Positions 17,946-63,787 of a DNA stretch of 64,000 bases are shown here, in pieces. The DNA is from a virus (taxonomy: Duplodnaviria > Caudoviricetes): positions 32,001-96,000 of the IMG/VR virus record IMGVR_UViG_3300028048_000081; one strand, 5' to 3'. Every line of letters begins with the position of its first letter. The first letter of the stretch is position 1. The notes beneath the pieces were generated by a model that was not told where the DNA came from, did no database searches, and saw only the letters and a program-made list of their open reading frames with translations. The position numbers and the translations under genes were made by a program.

Positions 17946-17961
17946 TATTTAGGAGGATATT

Positions 17962-18132: not shown

Positions 18133-18146
18133 AGAAGGAGTACATT

Positions 18147-18563: not shown

Positions 18564-18585
18564 TAAGTTAGAAAGGTGATATATT

Positions 18586-19563: not shown

Positions 19564-19578
19564 AAATAGGAGAAACAT

Positions 19579-19917: not shown

Positions 19918-19961
19918 TGACCAAAATTCCAGAGGTATCATCATACCACACCATATATAAA

Positions 19962-19988
19962 ACCGTGAGAGAACTTAAATCTCACGGT
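19962..19988. terminator. hairpin between convergent genes
   Basis: ACCGTGAGA...TCTCACGGT. Confidence 0.55.
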
Positions 19989-20006
19989 CGTTTACTGTAA
20001 GGGCCA

Positions 20007-20660
20007 TTATTTGAAGGCGTAGACGCGTTGACCACAGTCATATAGTGGTACGTACCCTGAATTTAACATATGTTCTCTAGAAAAATGCTTTTGACGACGA
20101 GACGCGTCAGAAATTCTATCGTTATTTCGTATCCACCATAGTGTTTTCTGATTGTCACGGATATATTTCATTCCGATATATTCATAATCTTTAAAATTTT
20201 CAAATGACATGTTAACATAAGCTACGATATTACTTATTCCAAAGTTAGATGCTTCTTGAGATAATATATCATATCCATGTTTAATATCATATGTTGGTAA
20301 CATCCACATCCGAGATAATTCTGCATCATATTTTTTGTTTCGTGATTTTTTGAAAGTCATGATGCAGTAAATTTCATTATCTTTGATAAGACCTAGTGCT
20401 AAAACATTTCCTTTAGGTGACTTGAAGGGGTGATATTCATCTAACCATCTGTTTGCAACATTAATATCTAATCTGTATGTATTGAGAGTATGTCCGTCAA
20501 CAACATGTATTCGAGGTTCTTGATAAAATATCAAAATATCTTTTTTGGTTTCAAATGTATGTTGTCGTTTTTGTTGAACTTCTTTAAGCATACATACATT
20601 CTTAACACCATATCTTTTCAAACATGTTTGTTGTCTTTTTTCATTAGAGTTAATTTTCAT
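20007..20660 (-). CDS. Hef-like homing-endonuclease-family remnant: CLxRYGV repeat plus GNAT/Mom-like domain, no nuclease domain seen
   Basis: CLKRYGV, ELSRMWM, IVAYVN, LYDCG; the only substantial minus-strand gene. Confidence 0.6.
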   Translation of the reverse strand: MKINSNEKRQQTCLKRYGVKNVCMLKEVQQKRQHTFETKKDILIFYQEPRIHVVDGHTLNTYRLDINVANRWLDEYHPFKSPKGNVLALGLIKDNEIYCIMTFKKSRNKKYDAELSRMWMLPTYDIKHGYDILSQEASNFGISNIVAYVNMSFENFKDYEYIGMKYIRDNQKTLWWIRNNDRISDASRRQKHFSREHMLNSGYVPLYDCGQRVYAFK

Positions 20661-20751
20661 TAAATAAAAAATCCAGATACTCTTTCAAAGTAGTGTTTCT
20701 AGCTTCATCAAAATATTTATTTTTAGATTCTCGCAGATATTTCCATTCCAT
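20650..20751 (-). CDS. 33-aa leader ORF (MEWKYLRESKNKYFDEARNTTLKEYLDFLFNEN)
   Basis: AGGGGG RBS on the minus strand; overlaps the start of the 20660 gene. Confidence 0.4.
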   Translation of the reverse strand: MEWKYLRESKNKYFDEARNTTLKEYLDFLFNEN

Positions 20752-20883
20752 CTTAAGTCCCCCTACAATTATATTATAACGAATTTTTATTTGTAAATAA
20801 ATATATAATATAAAAATACTTTTAAAGGTATCAAATCTTATATATCTACATAAAATATAGATTATTTATAAGGAGGTAGAAAA

Positions 20884-20907
20884 ATGTTTAGTCCTTTACA
20901 AATGGGT
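20884..20907 (+). CDS. tail tube protein exon 1 (MFSPLQMG)
   Basis: AGGAGG RBS, ATG at 20884, in-frame TAG at 20911 inside the intron; 1-mismatch late promoter at 20834-20844. Confidence 0.75.
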
Positions 20908-21277
20908 AACTAGTGCCCTTCATATTGAGTAATCAGTATGAACTACCGAGTTAATTGCTTTGAATCCCTAAAGCTCTCTTGCTACAGTGAATTCAGAAAT
21001 GAAAAACACGATAGAGCGAAAGCAGAAAAAAGTAGAGAGATGTTACATGGTTAAATCCTAAATAATATTGCAATGGGTGTTTAGCAGCCAAACTTCTAAT
21101 CAGATTGTATGAAGTAGGTCCAACGATCATCTCCTTGAGGGAGAGTAGAACTGCAAGCAGATGGCAGAAGAAAAATTCGGGCCCTAGTTACATAGGGATA
21201 AGATATGATCTCATCTTCAATGAAAGTTGAAGCAGTATAAACGGTACAGACGTTGCGAATCTGTACGAAGATAATGT
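20908..21277 (+). ncRNA. group I self-splicing intron (IA2-like), about 370 nt, no internal ORF; boundaries 20908-21277 or 20907-21276
   Basis: P1 GGGU/GCCC; P2 CATATTGA-GTAA-TCAGTATG; P3 CCGAGTT/AATTCGG; P4 TTGCT/AGCAG; P7 GATCAT/ATGATC; P7.1 and P7.2 hairpins; P8 CCCTA/TAGGG; P9 CTTCAAT-GAAA-GTTGAAG; 3' end GAAGATAATG. Confidence 0.9.
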
Positions 21278-21799
21278 ACCAACCATATGCTTGGGGTAGA
21301 TAATTATGTTCCATTAACAACAAACAACTTTGAGGTTAGAATATACAACATGGATGGGAGTTCCCCATCAGAATTTTCAGAACTTCTTACATTATCGACA
21401 GATGAAGTAGGAGATATTCAAGAAGAACAAGATTCTATTGTTGTACATTATGGTAATGGTCTTATCAAGTTTCCAAGTAAAGTAACATTTGGAGATGTTG
21501 ATTGGACTCTCAACTGCTATTGTGAACCAAATGTCCTTGGAGCACTTAGAGAGTGGAGAAAACAAGTTTATGATCCTGATACAGAGAGAATGGGTCTTCC
21601 GTCAGAATACATGAGACAAGTATTCTTCTTAAGGTATGATGGTCAAGGAAATATCAGAGATGGCGTGAGATGCCCGGGAACTTGGATCGGAGCACTTGAT
21701 AACGGTGCAATGTCTCAGCAAGGCGGAGATGTCGTTAAAGTTAGAGTTCCGTTTGTTATTTCTAGAGCGATTTATATGACACCTGAAGATTTGAGATAA
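21278..21799 (+). CDS. tail tube protein exon 2 (T4 gp19-like)
   Basis: NNFEVRI, VHYGN..IKFPSKVTFGDV, LREWRKQVYDP.T..MGLPSEY, WIGALD. Confidence 0.85.
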   Translation, partial: TNHMLGVDNYVPLTTNNFEVRIYNMDGSSPSEFSELLTLSTDEVGDIQEEQDSIVVHYGNGLIKFPSKVTFGDVDWTLNCYCEPNVLGALREWRKQVYDPDTERMGLPSEYMRQVFFLRYDGQGNIRDGVRCPGTWIGALDNGAMSQQGGDVVKVRVPFVISRAIYMTPEDLR

Positions 21800-21833
21800 G
21801 TTGGAATTCTGGAAAATAATTATATATACATAT

Positions 21834-21870
21834 ATAAATAAAGGTCAAATTACGGCCTTTATTTATTTTT
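21834..21870 (+). terminator. rho-independent terminator after tube
   Basis: ATAAATAAAGGTC...GGCCTTTATTTAT followed by a T run. Confidence 0.65.
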
Positions 21871-21900
21871 TTGTATTTTTAAATGTGCTCCTATCCAGTT

Positions 21901-21911
21901 AACCTTTTATA
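21901..21911 (+). promoter_or_regulatory. putative late promoter
   Basis: AACCTTTTATA. Confidence 0.65.
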
Positions 21912-21944
21912 TGTACGAATCGTTATCACATATGAGGAGTACAT

Positions 21945-23591
21945 ATGAAGCCTAAAAAATGTAAAGAATGTGGAAAAATATTTTTCCCTAAAAGTGGATC
22001 CCAATTGTATTGCAATGGGCCTCATGAATCTATTTGTGTAATATGTGGCAAGAAATTTCCATATACATGCAGACCGACTGAAAAACCTAAAACTTGTTCA
22101 AAAGAATGTCAAGAGAAGTTACGATCGAGGACAGCATTTGAAAAATATGGAGTTAAAAATGTTTCTGAATTAGATTCTGTTAGAAAGAAGATAAGTGAAA
22201 GAAATAGTTCTAAAGAAGTTGATCTAAAAAGACGAAAAACAAACTTAGCCCATTGGGGAGTAGATAATCCTTCCAAGAATAAAGATATTCGTGAGAAGTT
22301 ATCTGCTGTAATGAAAACTGAAAGGTATTTATCTGGTAGAGAGACCACATGTTTAGAAAAGTATGGTTATCGCAGTCCTATGCAATCAGATGTAGTTAAA
22401 GATAAACAGAGAAAAACATGTTTAGAACGATATGGTATGTCAGGGCATCCCCATACAGCGGAAGATTTTTCTAGAATGATGATAGATAGTTCTAAATGCA
22501 AAGATTATATTATGTTTAGATCGGATCCAAAGAAATATATTGAAGATCATTATTCTACGCCCCCATCCATATATGAACTTAAACGGGACTTAGGAGTTAC
22601 AGATACACCAGTATATGATATATTAATTGCAAAGAATTGTAGGGATTTATTGCTTAGCAGTTATAGCTATATGGAGAAAGATGTATCAGATTTCATAGTA
22701 TCGTTAGATCCAAACATTGATATAGTTAGACATGATAGAAAAATTATCCAACCTCAAGAATTAGATATATATTTACCAGAATATAAATTAGGTATTGAGT
22801 GTAATCCAACCGCTACTCATAATTCATCATTTAAAGATCCATGGGGAGGGGACCCTAAATATTACAAGTATCATCAGAATAAATCCATGAAATCTGGCGA
22901 CGCGGGGGTTTTTCTGTTTCATATATTTGGATATGAATGGGTGAATCGTAGGCATGTAATTGAATCTATGCTTGCAAATCTATTAGGTAAGAACAAATAT
23001 AAGTATGGTGGTAGAGATACATATGTATGCAAAGTATCTCCAGAAGAAAGTAAACAATTTTTAAACGATAATCATCGTCAGGGTAGTACAGTATCTAAGG
23101 TTCAAATTGGTCTAAGATTAAAATCTAACGATAAATTAGTATCCATAATGACGTTTGGTCATACACGTAATACTATAGGAAAAACGGATGATTCTACAGA
23201 AAATACCTGGGAACTTTCTAGATTCTGCAATAAACTGTATACTACAGTAAATGGGGGTGCAAGCAAGCTGTTCAAATATTTTATTGAAAATTATTCATTT
23301 GATAAGATTATTTCATTTTCAGATATAGCTCATACTAAAGGTACGCTATATGAAAAATTGAATTTTCATCAGATTTCTATATCTGCTCCAAGTTATGTTT
23401 GGTGTGATGGATATGATAACATATACTATAATAGAGTTTCTTGCCAGAAATCAAATCTTAAGAAATTATTGAAAGATGATAGCATTGATATTGAAAATCA
23501 ATCCGAAGCAAAGATAATGGAAGCACATAAATTTGCTCGAGTATATGATTGTGGAGTAATCAGATGGGAATATAATTATCATGAACCTTAA
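21945..23591 (+). CDS. free-standing Hef-like homing endonuclease (zinc fingers, CLEKYG repeats, PD-(D/E)xK/DUF559-like nuclease, GNAT/Mom-like C-terminus)
   Basis: CKECG/CVICG; EKYGV, HWGV, CLEKYG, CLERYG; ELDIYLPEYKLGIECN; WELSRFC..GASKL..ISFSD..GTLYEKLNF..YDCG. Confidence 0.75.
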   Translation: MKPKKCKECGKIFFPKSGSQLYCNGPHESICVICGKKFPYTCRPTEKPKTCSKECQEKLRSRTAFEKYGVKNVSELDSVRKKISERNSSKEVDLKRRKTNLAHWGVDNPSKNKDIREKLSAVMKTERYLSGRETTCLEKYGYRSPMQSDVVKDKQRKTCLERYGMSGHPHTAEDFSRMMIDSSKCKDYIMFRSDPKKYIEDHYSTPPSIYELKRDLGVTDTPVYDILIAKNCRDLLLSSYSYMEKDVSDFIVSLDPNIDIVRHDRKIIQPQELDIYLPEYKLGIECNPTATHNSSFKDPWGGDPKYYKYHQNKSMKSGDAGVFLFHIFGYEWVNRRHVIESMLANLLGKNKYKYGGRDTYVCKVSPEESKQFLNDNHRQGSTVSKVQIGLRLKSNDKLVSIMTFGHTRNTIGKTDDSTENTWELSRFCNKLYTTVNGGASKLFKYFIENYSFDKIISFSDIAHTKGTLYEKLNFHQISISAPSYVWCDGYDNIYYNRVSCQKSNLKKLLKDDSIDIENQSEAKIMEAHKFARVYDCGVIRWEYNYHEP

Positions 23592-23594
23592 ATA
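23584..23594 (+). promoter_or_regulatory. putative late promoter
   Basis: AACCTTAAATA upstream of tagged ORF 23631. Confidence 0.65.
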
Positions 23595-23630
23595 TATATG
23601 AAACATTATTCTATATAGGAAGGTATAAGT

Positions 23631-23891
23631 ATGAAACGAGTTATTACATCCGGAACAAGAAGTCCACGTAAAGAAAATATAAGGAAGATATGTGATTACA
23701 TGGATTGGAATCTTCCTACATTTTCTGATCCTGGATCATACGGGTATTCATGTAAATGGGGCGGTAGAACTTTAGTTGATAAGTATGGTATAGAACAGGT
23801 TGAAGAGTGGATACAAGATATAAAAGACGGAACTGGAATAGAATGTAAATTAACTCGTTCCGGAAAATTAATTGTTCCTTACGCAGAATAG
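23631..23891 (+). CDS. tagged putative capsid-internal protein (MKRVITSG), paralog of the 18147 C-domain
   Basis: Tag; alignable by eye to 18147. Confidence 0.65.
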   Translation: MKRVITSGTRSPRKENIRKICDYMDWNLPTFSDPGSYGYSCKWGGRTLVDKYGIEQVEEWIQDIKDGTGIECKLTRSGKLIVPYAE

Positions 23892-23933
23892 ATATACACA
23901 TCTTGAAAATTTTATTGGATAGAGGTTCAAACA

Positions 23934-24338
23934 ATGTATAGATACATAAGATCATCCGAAATAACAAATTCTAGAATAAGAAAATGTAAGAAATTAGTTC
24001 GTGATTATATATGGCAGTGTTTTTCTCAAGGTGGGGAATATTTCAATGATCCAGAAATGTTATCTAATATTGAATATATGAAATGGTATGATTCTGACGA
24101 AGATATTAGTTGGGCAGAATATGTATACAAACATAGACATGATATATTTGATAAGTATATTTTAGATAAAATAGAAAATGATCCTGAAATAAAAACAGAA
24201 GAAGAGCAAAACTGTATGATTGATTATTTTAATAATTTACAGCCGTCAGATTATAATCGGATACTATATCTTAAAAGAGATTCTACTAAAGATGGTATAT
24301 CTAATAGAATTCGTAGAATAAGGGAATATGATAAGTAG
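23934..24338 (+). CDS. tagged putative capsid-internal protein (MYRYIRSS)
   Basis: Tag; GAGG RBS. Confidence 0.65.
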   Translation: MYRYIRSSEITNSRIRKCKKLVRDYIWQCFSQGGEYFNDPEMLSNIEYMKWYDSDEDISWAEYVYKHRHDIFDKYILDKIENDPEIKTEEEQNCMIDYFNNLQPSDYNRILYLKRDSTKDGISNRIRRIREYDK

Positions 24339-24361
24339 ACATTCAACATAGTATTTTCATC

Positions 24362-24396
24362 AAAGAGATCTTCTAATCAGGAAGGTCTCTTTTATT
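24362..24396 (+). terminator. rho-independent terminator
   Basis: AAAGAGATCTTCT-AATC-AGGAAGGTCTCTTT followed by a T tract. Confidence 0.65.
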
Positions 24397-24422
24397 ATAC
24401 TGATTCGTTATTTATTATGTAG

Positions 24423-24433
24423 AACCTTGTATA
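24423..24433 (+). promoter_or_regulatory. putative late promoter
   Basis: AACCTTGTATA. Confidence 0.7.
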
Positions 24434-24479
24434 AATTTAGAAGAAATATTTAAGTTAAAATAGAAAGAAGGACGTAGAG

Positions 24480-24893
24480 ATGAAGTTATATGTTCGTTCA
24501 GCTTTTGATGACAACATGAATTTTGTTGCAGTAATAGATTCAAAAGGCTATGAAGATTATTCAAGTATAATACCGATATTGAATGCTGAAATTGACAGAT
24601 ACAATAGCATATTTGATAGAGTTGAATCTTTACCTCCAGAAGAGTATGAACAGATTGAAAACAATAATGAGGATTATAAGAAGTTTGTAGATACCTTTCA
24701 AAAATATTATGAATATATAGATAGGATGGAAGAAGCATTAGATTCTGATGAATTCATAGTAGATGAAAACAATAATCATAATGTAGATAACAGTATAACT
24801 GTTAGAAATCGTATATTTACATATGAAGATTTAATTGACATACTTTCTGAACTGAAAGAATGTCGTATCAATTTTGAAGATGAGGTGAAATAA
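24480..24893 (+). CDS. tagged putative capsid-internal protein (MKLYVRSA)
   Basis: Tag; acidic. Confidence 0.65.
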   Translation: MKLYVRSAFDDNMNFVAVIDSKGYEDYSSIIPILNAEIDRYNSIFDRVESLPPEEYEQIENNNEDYKKFVDTFQKYYEYIDRMEEALDSDEFIVDENNNHNVDNSITVRNRIFTYEDLIDILSELKECRINFEDEVK

Positions 24894-24894
24894 A

Positions 24895-25080
24895 ATGACA
24901 GTAGGAGAATTAAAAGAAATTGTAAATTCTATTCCGTCAGAAGATGATGACAAGAGAGTATTTGAATTTCGCGGTAATCGGTATTATGATTTTGATCTTT
25001 ACGGGTTAGATGAATGTGAAGTACAGGCTGAGTATTACGTTTATCAAGGATACTGCGTAGATATGGACCCAGGATATTGA
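24895..25080 (+). CDS. small phage hypothetical protein (MTVGELKE type)
   Basis: GAGGTG RBS; untagged. Confidence 0.65.
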   Translation: MTVGELKEIVNSIPSEDDDKRVFEFRGNRYYDFDLYGLDECEVQAEYYVYQGYCVDMDPGY

Positions 25081-25091
25081 TAAGGAGGTTT

Positions 25092-25727
25092 ATGATGAAA
25101 AGAGTTATTACAAGTACTGTTCAAAGTATGGATACAAAGGATTTTCAATCTTATTTTGAAAACAAATATGGATTTGAATTAGATTTTGCAAGAAGAACAG
25201 TAGAGGGTTTGAATGAAAAATACAGTGGGGAAATAATTTGTATTCCTACAGGTATTGGGCAGGCGATGCCATCCTCATATTCTAACTATGATTGTCTTCG
25301 TAATATGTTAGGAGAATCGAAAGATTATGAATTGACAGAAGATGATGTATTAGAAGTAATGAAGACGATAAAACAGGATTTTCAAAATGATCATCCGATG
25401 TCCTCTACAAGTGTTAGGTTCCGTGGAAATCTTCGTCAGATTCATATTAGAATATCGTCATCTTATGAATTAACAGATATTAATGATATTACTAAAGCAT
25501 GTGTTAAGGGGACAAATAAGATAGTAAAAAGTACTGAAACTAAATGTAATAAAGTAATGGATACATTGGATGAATTGCTTGATTATTCTGAAGGAAATGT
25601 AAAATTAACATCTGAAGGATATAATGAAATATCTGAAAATTTGGATAGCCTTATAAATTATATAGATGTTAACTTAATTGATAGAATAAATAAATATAAG
25701 AGCAATTTAAAAAACCGAGTTGAATGA
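25092..25727 (+). CDS. tagged putative capsid-internal protein (MMKRVITST)
   Basis: AGGAGG at 25083-25088 places the start at 25092/25095 rather than the TTG at 25077. Confidence 0.65.
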   Translation: MMKRVITSTVQSMDTKDFQSYFENKYGFELDFARRTVEGLNEKYSGEIICIPTGIGQAMPSSYSNYDCLRNMLGESKDYELTEDDVLEVMKTIKQDFQNDHPMSSTSVRFRGNLRQIHIRISSSYELTDINDITKACVKGTNKIVKSTETKCNKVMDTLDELLDYSEGNVKLTSEGYNEISENLDSLINYIDVNLIDRINKYKSNLKNRVE

Positions 25728-25764
25728 GTACATACTGTTTTAGCTCTAGGGGAGAGATATTAAT

Positions 25765-26019
25765 ATGTATAGATATATAAGATCAGATTCTGAAGGGGAA
25801 ATTATCAGCTGGGATTCATTATCCGGATCAGATCAACTTGCTGCAGAAAGAGCATCTGAATACATGAGTGAAGGAATGAGTATCGAGGATGCAGTCCGTA
25901 AAGGATGTATGGATATTTCTGAAGGCAATTCAGAACCTGAATATGAAAATGAAGATTTCTATTTAGAGGAACCAGATTACAATAAAGTATTGAAATACAT
26001 GAAGGGTAACGAAAGGTAG
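25765..26019 (+). CDS. tagged putative capsid-internal protein (MYRYIRSD)
   Basis: Tag; acidic. Confidence 0.65.
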   Translation: MYRYIRSDSEGEIISWDSLSGSDQLAAERASEYMSEGMSIEDAVRKGCMDISEGNSEPEYENEDFYLEEPDYNKVLKYMKGNER

Positions 26020-26023
26020 CAGT

Positions 26024-26248
26024 ATGAAAAAATACATAAAATCTTCAGAAGAATGGGAAGAATGGGACGGAGTATTCACTCCGGAATTCATAATGGAATA
26101 TTCTGATATAGAAGATGAAGATGAAGCACAAAGACTTTCTGATTATCTGTATGAACATGAATATGATTCAGGATTTTCAACACCTGAAGAATTTCTTGAA
26201 ACATTTGATTTAGATGAATTATACGATGATATGATTAATGAACAATAG
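26024..26248 (+). CDS. tagged, extremely acidic protein (MKKYIKSS), possible DNA mimic
   Basis: About 26 D/E among the 66 residues after the tag, only one Arg. Confidence 0.65.
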   Translation: MKKYIKSSEEWEEWDGVFTPEFIMEYSDIEDEDEAQRLSDYLYEHEYDSGFSTPEEFLETFDLDELYDDMINEQ

Positions 26249-26262
26249 ATGAGGAGAATAAA

Positions 26263-26604
26263 ATGAATGTTATTCATTCAAATATTTCAAGTAGTGCAAA
26301 ATGCATAGAAACATATAAAGGATATAGAATATATTTCGATGAAGGAACTGCAACATATCATATTTTCTTACATGATACAAAAATAGAATTTCCAGATATG
26401 TCGGAAGTAACAGAATACATAGACGATATTTCATTAGAAGACACAGAAGATCTAAAAGAATATGAAGTAAGATACATAGACGCAGATGATATTACACACA
26501 GTACAGATGTAGTTGCTGTATCTGATAAAGATGCGATGTCTAAAGCATGCTCAATGTTAGGAAGCAACTGTTATAGAATAATAGATGTATCCGAATTAAA
26601 ATAG
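26263..26604 (+). CDS. tagged putative capsid-internal protein (MNVIHSNISSS)
   Basis: Tag variant; GAGGAG RBS. Confidence 0.55.
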   Translation: MNVIHSNISSSAKCIETYKGYRIYFDEGTATYHIFLHDTKIEFPDMSEVTEYIDDISLEDTEDLKEYEVRYIDADDITHSTDVVAVSDKDAMSKACSMLGSNCYRIIDVSELK

Positions 26605-26617
26605 ATAGGGAGGCAAT

Positions 26618-26863
26618 ATGTATAAATATATAAAATCTAATTATGCTGGATCGCAACCTATGAAAATATATAATGTATACTTCAAAGATCAGTTTTATGG
26701 TCAAGTTGAAGCAGAATCCGAGGATGATGCCTGGTATCAGTACGAAGATGTAATTCCAGGGGATGAATTGGCTTCGGTTGATCATGATTATCTTCCAGAT
26801 TATATTTTTGTTGTACCTGCGGATGAAGATGATATTGAAGGCTGCGATAAAGTATCATGGTAA
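26618..26863 (+). CDS. tagged putative capsid-internal protein (MYKYIKSN)
   Basis: Tag; GGAGG RBS. Confidence 0.65.
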   Translation: MYKYIKSNYAGSQPMKIYNVYFKDQFYGQVEAESEDDAWYQYEDVIPGDELASVDHDYLPDYIFVVPADEDDIEGCDKVSW

Positions 26864-27041
26864 AGAAGAAATAGTACCTGTTTTAGCAAGGTTCATCTGC
26901 CACTACGGTTATGAGGGACAAACATTTCATAACAAGAAAGATGCAGCAGTTCTTGCACTTGAACTCTTAGAAGAAATGACCGGAACATATTGGGATCCTA
27001 CTCAAGAAGAGTTTGACGATATATTATATAGCATATATTAG
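26823..27041 (+). CDS. overlapping +1-frame ORF without a clear RBS; possibly the frameshifted C-terminus of 26618
   Basis: Protein-like acidic sequence (KEEIVPVLARF...EEFDDILYSIY) fills the gap to 27056. Confidence 0.4.
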   Translation: MKMILKAAIKYHGKEEIVPVLARFICHYGYEGQTFHNKKDAAVLALELLEEMTGTYWDPTQEEFDDILYSIY

Positions 27042-27055
27042 AAAGGTGTGTAATC

Positions 27056-27322
27056 ATGAAGCGAGTTATAATTTCTTCTACAATAGCGGATATGGAGAAA
27101 GATATCAAGAAGAGTAAGAATAAGCTCAAGAAGAAACCATTAGTAGAAAACTTCGGACAAGATGAAGTAAGACGTATAAGTGATAAGTATTTTGATCTTC
27201 AGATAGAAAACTATCAGCAATACAGCTCACTTATCAGAGAATTTTCAGATTGGTGTGCAAATTATGAAGGGGACAACATAAGATCGTCTGTTCATTCGTC
27301 TGAAGATATTCATAAAGGATGA
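27056..27322 (+). CDS. tagged putative capsid-internal protein (MKRVIISS; also IRSS/VHSS at the C-terminus)
   Basis: Tag at both ends. Confidence 0.65.
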   Translation: MKRVIISSTIADMEKDIKKSKNKLKKKPLVENFGQDEVRRISDKYFDLQIENYQQYSSLIREFSDWCANYEGDNIRSSVHSSEDIHKG

Positions 27323-27323
27323 T

Positions 27324-28451
27324 ATGTTAGATTACAGATACGCACCAGAATTAGAATCAAAAGTAATATCTAATATAAAATTAGATTATAATTGGATATT
27401 AGTAAATGATGAATCCAAAGTTAAATCTCATTCCATTGTATTCATATATGAAGATACAGATAGGAGATTTTTAGATTCGCTTTTTAGATATTCCGATATC
27501 ATATTAGTATACATAAATAGAAAAATAGATGATAGTTTAAAAGATTTCAGGAGTATAGAATTAAAAGCAATTTCAGATTCCAATCGTATGATACGGTATC
27601 CTGAAGAAGTAACACTATATTTAGAGTCAGGTTTAAAGACCGTTATAAATAATGAAGATAAATTATTGTTAAAACATAAGTCAAAAGAAATGAAGAAAGA
27701 TAACTGGTATGAACGGTATCTTTGTAATGACGGGCAAGCAAATCTAGATGATACACCAAAAGATATAGTATATGTATTAAAGAATGATGTTAAAGCAAAT
27801 GAATTAAGGTACAGTCTGAGATCTGTAGTTAAAAATTTCAAATTCAATCGCATATTCTTCTATGGGGGATGTCCGAAAAACATTCACCCAGATGTTTATG
27901 TAAATTATGAACAGTCAGGAAAAACTAAATATGCTAGAACACGTGGAATGTTTAAAAGTATATTTACAAATAATGATATAACAGAAGACTTCTGGTTATT
28001 CAATGATGATTTTTTCATATTAAGACCTATTGATAGAGTACCTTATATAATAGATGGAACAGTTCAAAAGTATAGGGATGCGATTAGGAAAAGATATGGA
28101 AGAGATTCTGTTTACACTATTAGATTAAGTAAATCAATAGATATACTTGAGAAACATGAACTAGACACTTTAAATTATGAATGTCATGTCCCTATGTTAA
28201 TAAATAGAAACAAAGGCCGAAGACTTCTTAGAGTATTTGATGATGATGCAATATTCAGAAGTACTTACGGGAACTATTTTAAAGTAGGGGGAATGATACA
28301 GAAGGATGTAAAGATCATAAGTTTAAAGAGTATTCCTGAAAATAATGATATATTGCTTTCTACATCAGATGAAAGTTTTAAACACGGAAAAGTTGGAAAA
28401 TATATAAAGGATATGTTCAGCGATAAATGTAGATATGAGGAGGGTATTTAA
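27324..28451 (+). CDS. Stealth-family (hexose-1-phosphate transferase-like) protein
   Basis: DIVYV, ELRYSLRSV.KN, FWLFNDDFF, HVPM motifs of the Stealth conserved regions. Confidence 0.7.
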   Translation: MLDYRYAPELESKVISNIKLDYNWILVNDESKVKSHSIVFIYEDTDRRFLDSLFRYSDIILVYINRKIDDSLKDFRSIELKAISDSNRMIRYPEEVTLYLESGLKTVINNEDKLLLKHKSKEMKKDNWYERYLCNDGQANLDDTPKDIVYVLKNDVKANELRYSLRSVVKNFKFNRIFFYGGCPKNIHPDVYVNYEQSGKTKYARTRGMFKSIFTNNDITEDFWLFNDDFFILRPIDRVPYIIDGTVQKYRDAIRKRYGRDSVYTIRLSKSIDILEKHELDTLNYECHVPMLINRNKGRRLLRVFDDDAIFRSTYGNYFKVGGMIQKDVKIISLKSIPENNDILLSTSDESFKHGKVGKYIKDMFSDKCRYEEGI

Positions 28452-28825
28452 TGAAGAAATATATTAAATCATCCAGTGGTTATAATAAAGTAGAAATAAT
28501 GAGTTCTGAGGATGGCTTGTATACACTTTATGAAGAAGAAGGTGTGGGAAGAAATGATACTCGTTATACAGGCCTTATAGTAGAATCTTTTGGTACTGCA
28601 TATGATAATGTAATAGAAATAAGACCTATAGCGAAAAATTCTCCAGAATTCAATGGTGGAAAAGTAAAGTACGAATATTCCGGATGTTATATTTCGCATG
28701 GTATGAACGGGCATACAGACACATTAGAAGAAACAGAACAGTATATTTCAGATCTTCAATCTGCTGTCAAGTTTGCTAAAAGAATAAACAATTACATTCG
28801 AGATGCTTGGACGAGGATATTTTAA
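28451..28825 (+). CDS. tagged putative capsid-internal protein (MKKYIKSS)
   Basis: Tag. Confidence 0.65.
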   Translation: MKKYIKSSSGYNKVEIMSSEDGLYTLYEEEGVGRNDTRYTGLIVESFGTAYDNVIEIRPIAKNSPEFNGGKVKYEYSGCYISHGMNGHTDTLEETEQYISDLQSAVKFAKRINNYIRDAWTRIF

Positions 28826-28848
28826 TTAATAAGGAGTGTATGATAATT

Positions 28849-29148
28849 ATGAAAAAGTATGTTAGATCTAGTAGTCAAGATGTACAGGGAATTGTAGACA
28901 AGTGCAATGAAAATGTCCCGGAACTGCTTTCTAAATTGATGGATGCGTTATATGGATTACAATCATTACAGGAAGATATGGATCCGGTAAGTGATTATGA
29001 AGTGTCAATTCGACATAAGAATGGTCAAGAATATTATTCTGGTCAGAATGAATTTGAAGATTTAGATGCTTGTAAACACAATATAGACGGAGCAGTTGAT
29101 TCTATAAATGATGCAATTGAATATCTTTCGGACTGGAAGGGCATGTAA
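28849..29148 (+). CDS. tagged putative capsid-internal protein (MKKYVRSS)
   Basis: AAGGAG RBS at 28831; start re-assigned to ATG 28849. Confidence 0.65.
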   Translation: MKKYVRSSSQDVQGIVDKCNENVPELLSKLMDALYGLQSLQEDMDPVSDYEVSIRHKNGQEYYSGQNEFEDLDACKHNIDGAVDSINDAIEYLSDWKGM

Positions 29149-57690: not shown

Positions 57691-58053
57691 ATGATTATGG
57701 AAGATTTATTGTTTACTCCGGCAGCACTTTTAGATGTTTTAACTCAGATTGAAGAACTAAAAGATGTTGATTTAGGGATAACAGAAACTGTAGACGGACA
57801 GTTACAGTTACAGGTAGGAGAATCTACTTATCTATTACAGCCAGAAGGCGAGACTGAAGTAGATGTTGAAGAGTCTGATTTAGAAAAAGTAGAAGATGCC
57901 AATATGGAAGCATATGAAAATCTAGAATCAGATGGGGAAATAAATATAGAAAAAGAAGCAGATGAAACTATTGAGTCTGGTCTTATAAAGGAAGCAGCAA
58001 AAGCTCTGTTATTGGGTGGTATGATAAAGCTTTCAGCAAAGATGTTAAAATAG
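57691..58053 (+). CDS. acidic head-associated protein
   Basis: Upstream of the protease; TIESG motif before a hydrophobic C-terminal helix. Confidence 0.55.
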   Translation: MIMEDLLFTPAALLDVLTQIEELKDVDLGITETVDGQLQLQVGESTYLLQPEGETEVDVEESDLEKVEDANMEAYENLESDGEINIEKEADETIESGLIKEAAKALLLGGMIKLSAKMLK

Positions 58054-58064: not shown

Positions 58065-59450
58065 ATGAAGAATAAAGAAGAGAAAGAAATAAAAGGACAG
58101 GACAATATATCCAGTAAGGCCTCTATACTTGGAACATTTGAGGGTGAATGCGCAGATGCAAGTATCACCAATAAGAATGGGCTAGATATTACAAAGGAAG
58201 TTTGGGATACTGTATTTGCTTCGGAAGAGTATAAGGATGCAATTGAACTTGGTCATTATATAGGTTTCCTAGGCCATCCAGAAGATCCAAATTGCATGGA
58301 TTTTGAGCATGCATGTATTGTAATGAAGGAAGGCCATATAGAAGATGACGGAAAAGTGTATGGAAAATTTGACCTTATAGATACTCCTGTAGGAAAAATT
58401 GTAAAATCATTTCAAGATGCTGGAGTTCAGTTTGGTATATCAGTAAGAGGGGCAGGAGATATAATAGATAATTCTGTTGACCCTGAAACATTTGTTTTCA
58501 GAGGATTTGATTTAGTTTCATTTCCTGCATATCCAGATGCAATTCCTACGTTTTCAGAAGTAGCAGCTTCATCGGATGCAGAAACACAGAAGAAATATAA
58601 AACGATATGTGCTGCAGTTAAGAATAATCTGGAAAGTTTAAATACTTGCGATGCTATTGATGTTATTCAGCCCCAATTTGCTAAGCAATCCGAAGAATAT
58701 CAACTTCTGGAAGACAGAAGGAAAGAGCTTTCTGGATGTGAATCGGAAGATACCGATGAAGATATAGATATAAGAGATGATCAGATACAAGGATTAACTA
58801 CATTATATATGGATTCTGTATCAAAGATTAAGAATTTAGAGGAAGAGAATTCAGAGTTAAAATCTCAACTTTCTAGAAATAATGTATTGTCATCAAGAAG
58901 AATAAAAGCAATTGAAAGAATTGTAAGTAATCAAAAATTAGTATTTGATAGAACAGCAAAAGAAAAAATACTAGCAAACAAAAAGATTATGAAGGACAAG
59001 TTATATCAGGCGCAGGTAAAGACGAAAACTCTTCGTACTGCTAACCTTAAATATAAACAGAGGGTAGAGGCAGCAGATGATTCTATTCATCAAAAAGATG
59101 CGATAATTTCTAGTTTAAAGACAAAACTTTCAGAAACTGTCGAAAGTAATACATCTTTGAAACAGAAAACGTCTAACTTAGATGTCAAGGTCAAAAAACT
59201 TAAAGATGAAATCACCGCTTCTCAGAAATTGATCCAAGAGTATCAGGATGCATATGGAAATATGTATGCAAATGCTTTAGGAGTTCACCTCGATAATGTA
59301 ACTATCAATTCTTCAACTACTGTTTCAGAATTGAAAGAAAGCATTTCAAGTGCTGCATCCGAAAGACGTAAATCTTCTATTAATTCCACATCGGAAGATA
59401 TAGCAGATACAGTTACACCGGATACAGAATCAGAAATTGTTACATTATAA
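58065..59450 (+). CDS. prohead protease (T4 gp21-like) fused to a coiled-coil scaffold
   Basis: NKNG, GFLGHP, DTPVGKIV, GISVRGAG, FDLVSFPA, then about 290 aa of coiled coil. Confidence 0.88.
   Translation: MKNKEEKEIKGQDNISSKASILGTFEGECADASITNKNGLDITKEVWDTVFASEEYKDAIELGHYIGFLGHPEDPNCMDFEHACIVMKEGHIEDDGKVYGKFDLIDTPVGKIVKSFQDAGVQFGISVRGAGDIIDNSVDPETFVFRGFDLVSFPAYPDAIPTFSEVAASSDAETQKKYKTICAAVKNNLESLNTCDAIDVIQPQFAKQSEEYQLLEDRRKELSGCESEDTDEDIDIRDDQIQGLTTLYMDSVSKIKNLEEENSELKSQLSRNNVLSSRRIKAIERIVSNQKLVFDRTAKEKILANKKIMKDKLYQAQVKTKTLRTANLKYKQRVEAADDSIHQKDAIISSLKTKLSETVESNTSLKQKTSNLDVKVKKLKDEITASQKLIQEYQDAYGNMYANALGVHLDNVTINSSTTVSELKESISSAASERRKSSINSTSEDIADTVTPDTESEIVTL
59043..59053 (+). promoter_or_regulatory. 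putative late promoter for the major capsid gene, inside the scaffold-coding region
   Basis: AACCTTAAATA. Confidence 0.55.
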
Positions 59451-59483
59451 TTGTTGTATAAATGTAAATAGGAGAGTAATAAC

Positions 59484-60938
59484 ATGATCAAGAAGACTTC
59501 TCGTAAAACGTCTGTTGGATCTGCTCGTAGAAGCGTAAAAGCTAGTTCGAGCATTACATCAGCCGTTAGAAACAGACGAGCTGTAACTGCTTCTAGAAAT
59601 ATGCAGAGTTTAACTCCGGAACAGAGGATGTTCGCTCGTCAGTTAACGAATAACATGCGTCGTAGCGGTGCTATTACAGCAGCAACAAATACAACTAACA
59701 TTATGGCGAAGCCAGATTTTCTTGAGCTTCTTCCGATGTTCGTTCAGAAACTTCTGATTGCAGACGTATTTGGTTCTGTTGCAATGAAATCTCGTCAGCA
59801 GCTCATTCCGTATTTCAAGTTCATTGCTGAAAATACAAAGGGTGAGACTAACAGGGGAGATATTCTTTCTAGCCCGTTTGTAAATCGTCAAGGAATTGAC
59901 GAAAACTTCACAGGAAGAGTTGTAAAGAATGAGATCGTGGGAGAGGGTCTTGCGATTGATCCTAAGAATCTTGCGCTCGTTTATACTCCGATTCTTCCGA
60001 ATTCGGTTTCTGTTATCGGCGAGGGAGTTGAGTTCTCAATCGTAGACGATGGTAATGGAAATCTTGTAAATGCTGCTGATAATACGGCGGCAGGATTCAT
60101 TGATTACAGCACAGGAAAAGTTACGATTACAGCTGCTGCTGCAGGTGCAAACAATGTAATCAGAGCTACTTATCAGTATGATAATGAAAACGTTGGTCCT
60201 AGATCAGAAGACCACGATGGTAACTTCGGTTATGATTATGGTGCTCAGATGGGCAAGGGTTATCTTCAGCTTGATGAAATTAACATCGTTGCTGAAGCAC
60301 ACCAGCTTGCTTGCTATTGGAGCATTTATTCCGCATTTGCTGCTCAGCAGGAATACGGTTCGAACATCGGCGATCTTGCGAAAGAGGCTGCTTTCTCAGA
60401 ACTTACAGCAGAAATTAACACAGAGGGCTTCAAGGCTCTTAAGGCTGCTGCTCAGTTCCGTCCACAGTTTAACTGGGATGCTAGTCCGGTACTTTCGGGT
60501 TCGGTTGTACCTTCGGATTATCTGAACATGTTCAAACTTAAGCTGAATCAGGCTGCTGCTTCGATTTATCAGGCAACAAGACTTACTCAGCCGAACAGAC
60601 TCGTAGTTGGTACTAATGTTGCTTCCTACATGAGCATGATCGAAGGTTTCCAGGCGGAAGCTTCGGAAGACAACGTAGGTCCGTACAAAGCAGGAAAACT
60701 TGATAGATTTGAAATCTACTGTGATCCTTCTTACAATCCGGATGAATGGGTTATGTGCTGCAAGTCGAATGATATTAGACGTAACAGTGCACTCTTCGGG
60801 GAGTACATGCCACTTACTAATACAGATGCTGTTGGTCTTGCTAATTCTTCGGTTCAGCAGGGTTACGCAACAATGTATGGTATGAAGGTTGTCAATCCGG
60901 ATACAGTCATTTCCGGAAAGATTCTTGGGACCTATTAA
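59484..60938 (+). CDS. major capsid protein (T4 gp23-like HK97 fold) with basic propeptide and beta-rich insertion
   Basis: LIADVFGSVAM, AEAHQL..YWS, ELTAEIN, GEYMPL, GYATMYG.KVVNP; follows the protease. Confidence 0.9.
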   Translation: MIKKTSRKTSVGSARRSVKASSSITSAVRNRRAVTASRNMQSLTPEQRMFARQLTNNMRRSGAITAATNTTNIMAKPDFLELLPMFVQKLLIADVFGSVAMKSRQQLIPYFKFIAENTKGETNRGDILSSPFVNRQGIDENFTGRVVKNEIVGEGLAIDPKNLALVYTPILPNSVSVIGEGVEFSIVDDGNGNLVNAADNTAAGFIDYSTGKVTITAAAAGANNVIRATYQYDNENVGPRSEDHDGNFGYDYGAQMGKGYLQLDEINIVAEAHQLACYWSIYSAFAAQQEYGSNIGDLAKEAAFSELTAEINTEGFKALKAAAQFRPQFNWDASPVLSGSVVPSDYLNMFKLKLNQAAASIYQATRLTQPNRLVVGTNVASYMSMIEGFQAEASEDNVGPYKAGKLDRFEIYCDPSYNPDEWVMCCKSNDIRRNSALFGEYMPLTNTDAVGLANSSVQQGYATMYGMKVVNPDTVISGKILGTY

Positions 60939-61002
60939 TATCTAATAGATCAAGAATTTCAATAAACACTAATTAATAAGTTATTCATTTGGAGGTAGGA
61001 AA

Positions 61003-61419
61003 ATGAAAGTTAAGATCATATACAATGGTCCTACTGCTGATATCGTCCGTAATGGAATGGAAATTGCTAGAATTTTCTATCCGGAGAATTCTTATGTAGA
61101 TAGCCCGGTTTTCACAAAGGGTTATCCTGTAGATGAGGATGAGAAAGAATATGGCAAATCCATCTATGCTACTAACGTAGACGGTTGGGGACATCTTCCT
61201 GGACTTCTTCCGATGGCCAACACGACAACGAAATTCGCACAGTTTGAAAGAGCTGTTGCAGAAGCTGCTGCTGCTAAAGCGGCCGGCGAAGATCCTAAGG
61301 GCATTGAATTTGAAGTTACAGGATACGAAGAGGAGATTTATTGGGATCAGATGGGTAAGAACCTTGCTGATCAAGGATTTGAAGTTACCATTGAGGATAA
61401 GGAAGATCCGGAGAGTTAA
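61003..61419 (+). CDS. hypothetical head protein
   Basis: GGAGG RBS; MCP-like codon usage. Confidence 0.65.
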   Translation: MKVKIIYNGPTADIVRNGMEIARIFYPENSYVDSPVFTKGYPVDEDEKEYGKSIYATNVDGWGHLPGLLPMANTTTKFAQFERAVAEAAAAKAAGEDPKGIEFEVTGYEEEIYWDQMGKNLADQGFEVTIEDKEDPES

Positions 61420-61472
61420 TCTCCTAATAAGTTAGCAGATATTGTAAGAAATAACAAGGAGGGAAATCGAGT

Positions 61473-62183
61473 ATGAAAATGCAGGAGATAATAGATCAAA
61501 TCACTTTCATGCTCGGTATCCCCGCTAACGAAAATGTAGAAGATATTCAACCTGAAAAAGCAGTACTTATTGCATTTCAAGAGTTGAAAAGATATATGAG
61601 AACACCTGTTGATAAAACGGTCCCGTTTTCTACTAGATTAGATCTAAAGAAACTGGGAATTAAAACAAAAAGAGTGTTGGGTGTTCAAGCGGCATATCCT
61701 AGGATCGGTCTTACAATGAGTTCTATAGACAGCGGAAATGTATTCCAAGTTGCTGCTGCAGTTAATACTTATAGCGCAATCGGTAATACATCTTCTATAA
61801 ATATAGATCCTATAATGACTGAAATGGCTATGGCTCAAGTTAGAAATACATTATCTACTGACTTCCAATGGTCATTTGATGCAGCAAATGATGTTATCTA
61901 TTGTACGCATCGAGACCCACGTCCATCTGTTGTAACTGTTCGGTATGTACCTGATTTTCAGGATGTTTCCGAAATAAAGAATAACACATGGATAAATTAT
62001 CTTATCCGGTTGAGCGAAGCTAATTTGAAAAAAGCATTAGGACGCTCACGGTCAAAATATAAAATAGAGGGTTCTAATGTATCTCTTGATGGTGATACTC
62101 TATTATCCGAAGCAAATGCGGAACTAGAAGCAATCCGGGAGGAATTAGAAGCTCATAAAGATAAGTTAGTTGTACTAAATTAA
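61473..62183 (+). CDS. neck/head-tail adaptor protein (gp13-like)
   Basis: KKALGRSRSKY...VSLDGDTLLSEA..ELE...EEL. Confidence 0.75.
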   Translation: MKMQEIIDQITFMLGIPANENVEDIQPEKAVLIAFQELKRYMRTPVDKTVPFSTRLDLKKLGIKTKRVLGVQAAYPRIGLTMSSIDSGNVFQVAAAVNTYSAIGNTSSINIDPIMTEMAMAQVRNTLSTDFQWSFDAANDVIYCTHRDPRPSVVTVRYVPDFQDVSEIKNNTWINYLIRLSEANLKKALGRSRSKYKIEGSNVSLDGDTLLSEANAELEAIREELEAHKDKLVVLN

Positions 62184-62203
62184 TGCTAATAGGAGGATAT
62201 GAT

Positions 62204-62527
62204 ATGTTCATTCAGAAACGTAAGATTACAGCCGGTGAAGAAGTTGAAGTTGCTCCCGAGGCGACAGATCTCCTGTTTGAGGCTGAAGATGTTGCTGAAC
62301 TTGTTGCTGAAGTTACGGATGAAACCGTTACTGCTGAAACAACTGAGGAAGGCGACGTAGAATTCACTGTTGGTGAGGATGATGTTTATACAGTTCAGCC
62401 GGAAGGCGATGAAGAAGTCCTTGAGGCTACTCATAAAAGCATCAAAAATAAGAAGCCGGTAAAAGCTTCAACTAACAGAAAAAATAGAAAAAGAAATGTA
62501 GTTCGTAAGTTCCCGTCGAAGAGATAG
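62204..62527 (+). CDS. acidic head-core/scaffold-like protein with tag motifs at both ends (KRKITAG, KPVKAS)
   Basis: AGGAGG at 62191 gives start 62204. Confidence 0.6.
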   Translation: MFIQKRKITAGEEVEVAPEATDLLFEAEDVAELVAEVTDETVTAETTEEGDVEFTVGEDDVYTVQPEGDEEVLEATHKSIKNKKPVKASTNRKNRKRNVVRKFPSKR

Positions 62528-62538
62528 TGAACTTATAA

Positions 62539-62576
62539 GGCCTCTTCTAGGTTTGGATCACTTCCTAGAAGAGGCC
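62539..62576 (+). terminator. hairpin/terminator
   Basis: GGCCTCTTCTAGG...CCTAGAAGAGGCC. Confidence 0.65.
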
Positions 62577-62599
62577 ATAATTACTATAAGAGGATCATT

Positions 62600-63787
62600 A
62601 TGAAGATATCTAACACAAAAGTAGAAGCAGGATTATTATCTAAACTTGTTTCTGGAATTGGAAAAATGTTTGGAAATGCATTTGCGGATACACTCAAGGA
62701 ACTTGGAAATGTAGAGGATGTAAAGACAAATAATCAAGGAGATGTTGTTTTTACAAAATTTCCAGAAGATACTAGTCTGAAGCCTTATTTTGTAAAATTT
62801 AGCGATTTTGAAGATATTGGCAACGGAATGCTTCAGGGAAAATTATCTATACAGGATCCTGGAGGAACTGTATATCCGAATGTGTGTAATGTTATAGAGA
62901 AAATTCCTGGATTAGTGGATCCTAAAGATGAAGGAACTGATTCTGAGAATATGGGTCAGGATGAATCAGAGGGTTCGGAGGGTTCTGAGAATTCTGAGAA
63001 TTCTGAGAATTCGGATGTTTCGGAATTAGATAAATCCGAATTGAAGGATATTCTAAAGGAATCTGAAGCAGAAACAGTAAATGGAGATGAAATAAAAGAG
63101 GTCCTTTCAAAATTTGAAAATAATTATTTAACTCAATTTCCTGTTAATACAAGTGTAAAGGTAACACTGTCTAAAGTAACTGGATCTGAAAGTACCGATA
63201 TATGTTTACAAAAAATATGTTGTGATACAGATCCTGTAGAAAATTGGAACAATTTCAATACCGCTTTGAATTCAGAAGAAGTATTGAATATGATTCCAGA
63301 AGATGGAGAAATATCTTTGGATATTTCTAATGATCCTTACAGTGATACAATATCAATAAGTGAAATATCTGAATTACCAGATCCTGATCCTGAAAATACG
63401 GGTCTTAAATGTATAATATCTGAATTAAATAATTTAACTAGTAATCTGCTAGTTGCATCCAGTATAACTTCTGATTTCGCTTCTGGCGGAAAATATAATA
63501 TGTTATTCTATGATGCTCAATCTCAACTTCAGGAATTGGTTAACAAATATTATGTTGTATTTGGTAGTATCATTCCACTTAATACACTATCTTCTACAGG
63601 TATGCCAATATCAGATTATTCTGATGTAGATGCTGTTATTGAAGATAACATAAAGATATTAATAGATGATATACAATTAAGATATCCTACATTTACAGAT
63701 ATAACAATTCAAGACAGTTTAACAAGATGTTTAGATTCTTGGAGAACTAATCTCAAATTACAATTTGATAATTGTATTGGAGAATGA
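62600..63787 (+). CDS. acidic putative head-internal protein (KVEAG tag; SEN tandem repeat)
   Basis: MKISNTKVEAGLL; 9-bp TTCTGAGAA repeat x3 near 62983-63009. Confidence 0.55.
   Translation: MKISNTKVEAGLLSKLVSGIGKMFGNAFADTLKELGNVEDVKTNNQGDVVFTKFPEDTSLKPYFVKFSDFEDIGNGMLQGKLSIQDPGGTVYPNVCNVIEKIPGLVDPKDEGTDSENMGQDESEGSEGSENSENSENSDVSELDKSELKDILKESEAETVNGDEIKEVLSKFENNYLTQFPVNTSVKVTLSKVTGSESTDICLQKICCDTDPVENWNNFNTALNSEEVLNMIPEDGEISLDISNDPYSDTISISEISELPDPDPENTGLKCIISELNNLTSNLLVASSITSDFASGGKYNMLFYDAQSQLQELVNKYYVVFGSIIPLNTLSSTGMPISDYSDVDAVIEDNIKILIDDIQLRYPTFTDITIQDSLTRCLDSWRTNLKLQFDNCIGE

Follow-up and report, generated by a model that had tools for sequence, protein, structure and literature searches.

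Here we describe the head module of an uncultured tailed phage whose prohead protease, together with those of its clade, quite probably cuts its substrates after Ala or Ser in the motif [IV]-x-[AS], and not after Glu. The window analysed is a stretch of 64,000 nucleotides (positions 32,001 to 96,000 of the IMG/VR record IMGVR_UViG_3300028048_000081), part of a 124,241-bp phage contig; coordinates are those of the window. It encodes a prohead protease fused to a coiled-coil scaffold, 461 amino acids (aa) long (58065..59450, + strand), and a gp23-like major capsid protein (MCP) of 484 aa (59484..60938, +; PF07068). The proteases of T4, phiKZ, 201phi2-1 and SPN3US all cut after Glu, and in T4 the scaffold, the propeptides and the capsid-targeting sequence (CTS) tags all bear the site of the protease (PMC9026906, PMC10052503). 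In the literature on prohead-protease specificity we found no description of a gp21-type protease cutting after small residues. An earlier note on this DNA had proposed cleavage after Ala/Ser rather than Glu, and comparison with relatives now argues for it through the conservation of the sites, the Glu-type sites of a sister clade and the changes of the enzyme beside its catalytic residues.

By homology, the open reading frame (ORF) 58065-59450 is a member of Peptidase_S77 and a homologue of T4 gp21, with the catalytic triad intact. Residues 25-169 match PF03420 with 28.1 bits (cut-off 27), phrog_207, annotated as head maturation protease, matches with E 3e-22, and hhalign relates the protease to T4 gp21 with E 5e-5. 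The protease domain covers approximately residues 17-165 and the scaffold part residues 166-461, the C-terminal 300 residues being coiled-coil-like. An AlphaFold model of residues 1-192 has T4 gp21 (5jbl) as its top three fold matches in the PDB (chain B, E 8e-4; chains A and C, E 1.0-1.1e-3), with probability 1.0 and TM values of 0.52-0.63, while herpesvirus proteases appear as weak fold matches ranked below gp21 (E 0.27-0.9). PDB sequence searches with the protease alone or with its profile missed 5jbl, the profile matching coiled coils only, and the link to gp21 is based on Pfam, hhalign and the fold search.

The counts for the enzyme given here and below refer to 84 in-clade and 55 sister-clade sequences. 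The catalytic residues are His71 (T4 His85; 58275..58277, +), present in 83/84 and 55/55 sequences according to the hhalign correspondence; Ser126 (T4 Ser140), which stands in GISVRG, is followed by Val127 in the place of T4 Ser141 (58440..58445, +) and is kept in 84/84 clade representatives; and Asp149 (T4 Asp168; 58509..58511, +), the third triad residue, in 81/84 and 55/55. An Asp in third place is proper to gp21-type enzymes (PMC5694885), and mutations of H85 and S140 were used to inactivate T4 gp21 (PMC12991175). The genomic context agrees with the family assignment: the MCP gene lies directly 3' of the protease-scaffold gene, and a portal (7304-8803, phrog_213) and a tail sheath (11312-13729) are found in the window. 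Thus family model, fold, catalytic residues and context all place the enzyme in S77. Cutting after Glu in [IL]-x-E, which the enzyme would not share, judging from its predicted substrates alone, is a property of every characterised S77 member that lies outside the homology definition. A complex prediction for the protease domain and MCP residues 1-80 scored 0.02 and carries no weight either way.

All the motifs listed in the earlier note were located in the sequence. In the MCP, they start at residues 11 (VGSA), 18 (VKAS), 24 (ITSA), 34 (VTAS) and 64 (ITAA). In the protease-scaffold, motif copies start at residues 166 (VAAS), 181 (ICAA), 274 (VLSS), 286 (IVSN), 302 (ILAN), 334 (VEAA), 347 (IISS), 359 (VESN), 383 (ITAS), 414 (INSS), 427 (ISSA) and 439 (INST). 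Elsewhere, ITAG and VKAS occur in ORF 62183/62204, VEAG and VTGS in ORF 62600, IESG in ORF 57691, and ITSA and ITSG in ORF 2005. When [IV]-x-[AS]-[ASGNT] was counted against shuffles that keep the composition of each segment, MCP residues 1-70 held 5 motifs where 1.0 was expected (p about 6e-4) and the scaffold part, residues 166-461, held 12 where 2.5 was expected (p < 2e-4). The protease domain (1 observed, 0.9 expected) and the MCP from residue 71 to its end (7 observed, 3.6 expected) gave no significant excess, and there are 0 copies of [IL]-x-E in the MCP propeptide. By motif excess, the protease-scaffold comes 1st and the MCP 3rd of the genome's 136 ORFs. Enrichment in head over tail proteins, which the earlier note had set as a check, was borne out by observed/expected ratios of 2.48 in the head module and 1.25 in tail and baseplate genes; the ratio is 1.06 in the sheath region and 1.09 in replication genes. 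We also considered an artefact of coiled-coil heptads and rejected it, as the i/i+2 spacing of the motif is unlike that of a/d positions and the propeptide is equally enriched without the coiled-coil character of the scaffold.

Relatives were found for the capsid protein (855 at E <= 1e-10) and for the protease (1234 at E <= 1e-5), on contigs of 120-250 kb. For the MCP propeptide we compared 60 relatives, 67-92% identical, among the 120 best MCP matches. The predicted propeptide, residues 1-66 (59484..59681, +), is basic and carries 5 motif copies; in the relatives 3-6 copies are kept while sequence and length drift. The last copy, I64-T65-A66↓A67 (59673..59684, +; the arrow marks the predicted cut), is the putative maturation site, and [IV]-[TM]-A-A-T-N-T-T-N-I-M-A is present there in every relative shown. 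In the 27-row MCP alignment A66, A67, T68, N69, T70, N72 and I73 are invariant. The mature MCP would then start ATNTTNIMAK after I-T-A, and the start that the earlier note had predicted, at ATNTTNI after AITA, gains comparative support from the invariance of the A66-A67 junction in these 27 aligned relatives. Furthermore, PF07068 (Gp23; E 7e-20) aligns its model position 16 with residue 87, from which the MCP fold begins near residue 70. An AlphaFold model of the MCP from the same alignment, with a pLDDT of 39.7, was too poor to align the mature N-terminus with gp23*.

In the scaffold parts of the 120 relatives used for the protease-scaffold comparison there are 6-14 motif copies, with a median of 9, and three sites stand out by their constancy. 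V166-A167-A168↓S169 (58560..58571, +), the predicted release site between protease and scaffold, matches the strict motif in 120/120 relatives; I181-C182-A183↓A184 (58605..58616, +) is kept in 117/120; and I414-N-S-S (59304..59315, +), 45 residues before a conserved C-terminal tail, in 114/120. The last one is a candidate counterpart of the maturational site (M-site) of herpesviruses. At the very end of the scaffold (59430-59447), relatives share a conserved acidic stretch and [DE]-[LI]-V-T-L; this tail could be capsid-binding, as is the C-terminus of herpesvirus scaffold proteins. A further motif copy, VFAS at protease residues 50-53 (58212-58223), lies inside the folded domain, is kept in 103/120 relatives and is presumably structural and buried; hence a motif match alone is no mark of a cut site.

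An unbiased scan of 400 a-x-b patterns over the propeptides and scaffolds of 116 relatives returned I-x-A and V-x-A as the enriched multi-copy patterns, and found no enrichment of [ILV]-x-E in the same proteins. The resulting site logo has Ile/Val at P3, mostly Thr at P2, Ala (71-75%) or Ser (25-29%) at P1 and, at P1', Ser (42-56%) followed by Ala, Gly or Asn.

The most telling comparison is with a sister clade. A search of 1.8 billion representative proteins separated a tight clade around the protease (92 representatives at E <= 1e-30, at least 48% identical over full-length matches) from a sister clade of proteases that are 34-43% identical and likewise fused to a scaffold. Its head modules were examined in 80 loci (L004-L083) retrieved with an alignment query, a query with a single sister-clade protein having retrieved none. 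Together with gene 031 of Bacillus phage SP-15, these loci share with our phage the protease-scaffold fusion, the gene order and the gp23-like MCP, and differ from it in bearing [ILVM]-x-E in the release site, the scaffold, the MCP propeptide and the tags. The release site is [IV]-[AS]-A↓S in the clade and V-T-E↓S in the sister clade. In-clade scaffolds show an excess of the Ala motif (z 2.5-6) in all those sampled but one (374 aa, z 0.9), with no excess of [ILV]-x-E, whereas most sister-clade scaffolds have an excess of [ILV]-x-E (z 2-5.6; 3 of about 45 distinct ones below 2) and none of the Ala motif. The MCP propeptides of the 80 sister-clade loci carry L-L-E, V-[AS]-E and M-N-E↓A-F. N-terminal extensions of the protease are Ala-type in 29 and Glu-type in 8 cases in the clade, versus 8 Ala-type and 30 Glu-type cases in the sister clade (Fisher p 7e-7), and families of N-terminally tagged proteins near the head genes are 25 Ala-type and 5 Glu-type in the clade, versus 5 Ala-type and 13 Glu-type in the sister clade (p 2e-4).

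The replacement falls on homologous positions. The cultured distant relatives Streptococcus phage GXN1 and SP-15 have L-x-E propeptides, and in the MCP alignment L-L-E↓S of GXN1 and M-F-E↓T of SP-15 coincide with I-T-A↓A here. By hhalign, in turn, I185-T186-E187↓S188 and L204-A205-E206↓A207 of T4 gp21 coincide with V-A-A↓S and I-C-A↓A. Altogether, four kinds of putative substrate, namely the N-terminal pro-segment of the protease, the release site with the scaffold, the capsid propeptide and the tags, appear to have switched jointly from [ILV]-x-Glu to [IV]-x-[Ala/Ser].

The enzyme differs between the two clades as well. When a pocket no longer binds a carboxylate, the loss of conserved arginines is expected. 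The R-N-G-R of Glu-cutters (T4 R52 to R55) is replaced by Lys37-Asn38-Gly39-Leu40 (58173..58184, +). At the position of T4 Arg52 (residue 37), Arg occurs in 0/84 in-clade sequences, versus 55/55 in the sister clade; at that of Arg55 (residue 40), Leu or Met is found in 79/84 in-clade sequences, versus Arg in 52/55; at that of Tyr57, Ile or Leu, versus Tyr in 55/55. After the catalytic His, where most Glu-cutters have Arg (T4 Arg88), there is Pro75 (58287..58289, +), shared by 72/84 in-clade sequences, versus Arg in 55/55. Beside the catalytic Ser, residue 127 is Val or Ile in 84/84, versus Ser in 55/55, so that the motif reads G-I-S-[VI]-R-G in the clade and G-x-S-S-R-G in the sister clade and T4. 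A Ser at this position (T4 Ser141) is present in all seven named Glu-type sequences or groups compared, including T4, SP-15, XacN1, S-BM1 and Paraglaciecola GD1. Sister clade and SP-15 retain G-x-S-S-R-G, T-R-N-G-R-x-Y and H-P-x-D-R. The lost Arg and Ser residues may shape the S1 pocket.

In a maximum-likelihood tree the Ala-type clade is monophyletic (support 100/100) and branches from within the Glu-type group of scaffold-fused enzymes; SP-15 and the T4-like enzymes fall outside this group. Should the tree be rooted on the T4-like side, the nesting implies a single derived switch of specificity. The stem of the Ala-type protease clade measures 2.5 changes per site, versus 0.1-0.7 for the remaining internal branches among the scaffold-fused enzymes; such a long stem fits a burst of change at the switch.

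Beyond propeptide and scaffold, the motif recurs at the start of unrelated small proteins. An array of small ORFs (17634..29148, +) begins with M-K-[KR]-[VY]-[IV]-x-[SA]-small, e.g., MKKYIKSS, and about 20 small proteins of the genome start in this way. In 8 ORFs the motif begins at residue 5, where 1.06 would be expected (Poisson p 1.5e-5). The tags are 7-10 residues long, basic and without a hydrophobic core, and the proteins bearing them are unrelated outside the tag with the sole exception of the pair 18147/23631. This paralogous pair (18147-18563 and 23631-23891) shares 37% identity over 68 aa (E 9e-15); with just one tagged pair related, paralogy was ruled out as an explanation of the shared tags. 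A DNA element repeated at the gene starts was likewise discarded, for the upstream DNA is unconserved and the tag codons differ synonymously, which indicates selection on the peptide. As in T4-type capsid targeting, we have here a short N-terminal leader common to unrelated proteins and ending in the predicted site of the protease, and the tags may be taken as putative capsid-targeting and cleavage tags. The earlier note had tied the tagged array to head maturation, and this link is supported by the comparison in which Ala-type and Glu-type tags track the clade.

Most of the tagged small proteins are strongly acidic straight after the tag (e.g., 26024, 25765 and the ORF at window-equivalent 74364). 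More tagged ORFs form a second group 3' of the window (window-equivalent 67677-74700), with the starts MKIVSS, MKRLSRINAA, MKRVVSN, MKRIASS and MKIKKSRIVAA. Moreover, sister-clade head modules carry their own tags ending in [IL]-x-E, such as a 441-aa family with MSFDYINE↓AF and a 103-aa family with MNKLVLEE↓S; given these Glu-type tags, the tag system seems older than the specificity switch.

We thus propose that the enzyme would recognise Ile or Val at P3, any residue, often Thr, at P2, and Ala more than Ser at P1, cutting before a P1' that is usually Ser, Ala, Gly or Asn. In the assembled prohead the protease would detach from the scaffold by cutting at V-A-A↓S (residues 166-169) and, in many relatives, an N-terminal pro-segment ending in I-K-S would probably be trimmed as well. 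The scaffold would then be chopped at about 10 sites, and the 66-residue basic capsid propeptide would be removed, with I-T-A↓A as the last cut. Finally, the tags of 7-10 residues would be clipped from some 20 unrelated small and mostly acidic proteins, which would have been loaded into the head as the T4 internal proteins are by their capsid-targeting sequences.

The same data could be read in other ways. The protease might have kept its Glu specificity, or another one that is not seen, with [IV]-x-[AS] serving as a repeated docking element through which propeptide, scaffold and cargo would bind one another or the inner capsid wall. Short N-terminal motifs can serve binding, given that the T4 CTS has separable targeting and processing residues (PMC9026906), and the copy conserved inside the folded protease (VFAS at residue 50) stands where cutting is impossible. 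However, a docking element has no need to lie exactly at the boundary of the protease domain in every one of the 120 relatives; Ala stands precisely where T4 gp21, the sister clade, GXN1 and SP-15 have the P1 Glu of the homologous site; the propeptide is devoid of any [ILV]-x-E and the scaffold has no excess of it; and the enzyme has lost arginines that the sister clade keeps without exception (T4 R52 and R88) or with few exceptions (R55). We consider docking without cleavage improbable. It is also conceivable that a different enzyme cuts the motif, be it the signal peptidase I of the host or another phage peptidase, the gp21-like protein being inactive or otherwise employed. Indeed, [IV]-x-[AS] before a small residue satisfies the -3/-1 rule of signal peptidase I, and ORF 13857-16937 weakly matches a PHROG annotated as peptidase. 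Yet the tags are short, basic and devoid of a hydrophobic core, and the scaffold and the MCP propeptide belong to assembly proteins of the cytoplasm; moreover, the gp21-like enzyme keeps its catalytic His, Ser and Asp across the clade and its sequence changes co-vary with the sites, which leaves this explanation very little room.

The last alternative denies a processing code altogether and sees in the motif the outcome of a low-complexity composition rich in Ser, Ala and Thr, of shared ancestry and, for the tags, of selection on translation initiation. The propeptide is in fact rich in S, A, T and R, and where an AT-rich genome has strong Shine-Dalgarno sites, proteins often start with MK(K/R). 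Nevertheless, the motif counts exceed those of shuffles that keep composition, the sites outlast the turnover of the sequence between them, and the tagged proteins have neither common descent outside the tag nor common tag codons; above all, neither composition nor translation would predict the same architecture in the sister clade with Glu in the place of Ala. We regard this alternative as highly unlikely.

Cleavage after Ala/Ser remains the reading that we prefer, and several points weigh against it. The motif is short and degenerate; across the genome about 8 copies fall on every 1000 residues, too many for any single site to be called. Its definition came from the very proteins in which it was tested, a circularity that the sister clade, the relatives and the unbiased scan remove only in part; and the counts over relatives are not phylogenetically independent samples, a point that favours shared ancestry as well. 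Whether the cut follows the third or the fourth residue of the motif is set solely by alignment to T4 sites. The gp21 of cyanophage S-BM1, a presumed Glu-cutter, has Gly at the position of T4 R88, which is therefore no universal marker of Glu-cutters. The quality of the protease model is only moderate (pLDDT 66.7), and the clade is without a cultured member in the phage collection, where the best match is 26% identical. Finally, the homologues of ORF 62204 (14 distinct N-termini in 26 matches) have a leader that varies in length and sequence and ends in hydrophobic-x-A; the hydrophobic residue is mostly Ile or Val and in one case Ala, and after the leader come G, S, D or E and then an acidic body. 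Since Asp or Glu may follow the Ala, P1' is not strictly small, and this part of the motif as the earlier note had formulated it does not hold in every case.

How does this system compare with those already known? With T4 it shares a homologous protease, as judged from Pfam, fold and the aligned His, Ser and Asp, and a homologous gp23-like MCP; a rule of three residues in which P3 is aliphatic and P2 free, with sites clustered in scaffold and propeptide; candidate self-processing sites at both ends of the protease; and unrelated small proteins with short N-terminal tags that end in the protease site, as IPI-III and Alt have in T4. For T4 gp21 itself, C-terminal processing is known and an LIE-9 motif stands at the N-terminus (PMC9026906, PMC9958956). 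The differences are that P1 is Glu in T4 and putatively Ala/Ser here; that genes 21 and 22 are separate in T4 while protease and scaffold form one polypeptide here; that the equivalents of R52, R55, Y57, R88 and S141 are absent from the enzyme here; that internal proteins are basic in T4 and the tagged proteins mostly acidic here; and that the cleavage code of our phage is a prediction from sequence comparison.

The proteases of giant phages, phiKZ gp175, 201phi2-1 gp268 and SPN3US gp245, are likewise diverged gp21 homologues with many head and ejection substrates, a short motif and multiple sites in propeptides (PMC10052503, PMC9026906). Unlike the enzyme described here, they cut after Glu ([S/A/G]-x-E, A-x-E) and lack a comparable long fusion to a coiled-coil scaffold.

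A more distant likeness is that with assemblin, the herpesvirus protease (MEROPS S21; UL80 of human cytomegalovirus, HCMV, and UL26 of herpes simplex virus, HSV). Assemblin follows the consensus (V/L/I)-x-A↓S, and the predicted [IV]-T-A↓S of our phage resembles its V-x-A↓S. The M-site substrate of HCMV reads R-G-V-V-N-A↓S-S-R-L-A (PMC3853728; 10.1101/2025.10.17.683123). The layout of the assemblin precursor, with an N-terminal protease, a release site, a C-terminal scaffold and a maturational site near the scaffold end (PMC4498786, PMC8537868), has a parallel here in the domain order and the predicted sites, and the fold class is related, through the weak matches mentioned above. In contrast, the triad is Ser-His-His in assemblin, while the third residue here aligns with the Asp of gp21-type enzymes; the protease gave no Pfam S21 match and no detectable sequence similarity to assemblin. 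As the Ala-type clade lies in the tree inside Glu-cutting phage enzymes, the assemblin-like rule is most likely convergent; the shared rule was probably not inherited.

Were the proposed specificity confirmed, it would be the first departure from the Glu rule of the characterised gp21 family (T4, phiKZ, 201phi2-1, SPN3US), in a clade for which public metagenomes contain over 850 capsid and over 1200 protease relatives, and at the same time a natural case of an enzyme and all its substrates changing specificity jointly, with the Glu-type sister clade as a built-in control. The candidate determinants are T4 R52, R55, R88 and S141, versus K/N, L/M, P and V/I here. That the predicted rule agrees with that of the distantly related herpesvirus assemblin adds to its interest. 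From a practical perspective, the rule would permit the annotation of mature capsid termini and of capsid-loaded cargo in phages of the clade, and it suggests an orthogonal pair of tag and protease for packaging proteins into capsids.

A re-aimed protease could also matter, speculatively, in the conflict between phage and host. The CD-NTases of CBASS (cyclic oligonucleotide-based antiphage signalling systems) are reported to use [IL]-x-E decoy loops to sense gp21-type proteases (PMC12991175). One may imagine a bolder scenario, in which the proteolytic code was rewritten once, the S1 pocket losing its arginines and about two dozen putative substrates passing from Glu to Ala/Ser at P1, in convergence with assemblin; the driver may have been escape from such decoy-loop defences, and the tagged acidic proteins would be a counter-defence arsenal delivered with the capsid. 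Taken as a whole, we hold this scenario to be rather unlikely.

The contig has a G+C content of about 33%, with nearly every gene on the + strand and strong Shine-Dalgarno sites, and megablast of the region against cultured phages gave no match. Directly 5' of the protease, in the position of T4 gp67/gp68, lies a gene for an acidic 120-aa protein (ORF 57691; 57691..58053, +). Ahead of an amphipathic helix at its C-terminus stands a conserved [IV]-E-[SG]-G (57970-57981), kept in 13/13 homologues inspected, and 33 homologues adjoin the protease in relatives; gene order suggests that the protein may be a core protein. Further downstream are an acidic 107-aa protein with the basic leader MFIQKRKITA↓G (62204..62527, +) and a 395-aa protein, recognised by its sequence, with the leader MKISNTKVEA↓G (62600..63787, +). 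The role of core proteins, which the earlier note had given to ORFs 57691, 62204 and 62600, is putative. The motifs attributed to ORF 62600 are indeed present, and with only two weak homologues, one of them starting MSKPITAG, there are too few sequences to judge their conservation. ORF 2005, also put forward as a substrate, is unconvincing, as its motifs (4 in 230 aa) are not in excess.

A last observation concerns SP-15 (KT624200.1; L002 6654-9171), where the MCP gene is annotated as two joined pieces with an endonuclease gene (Phage_endo_I) between them.

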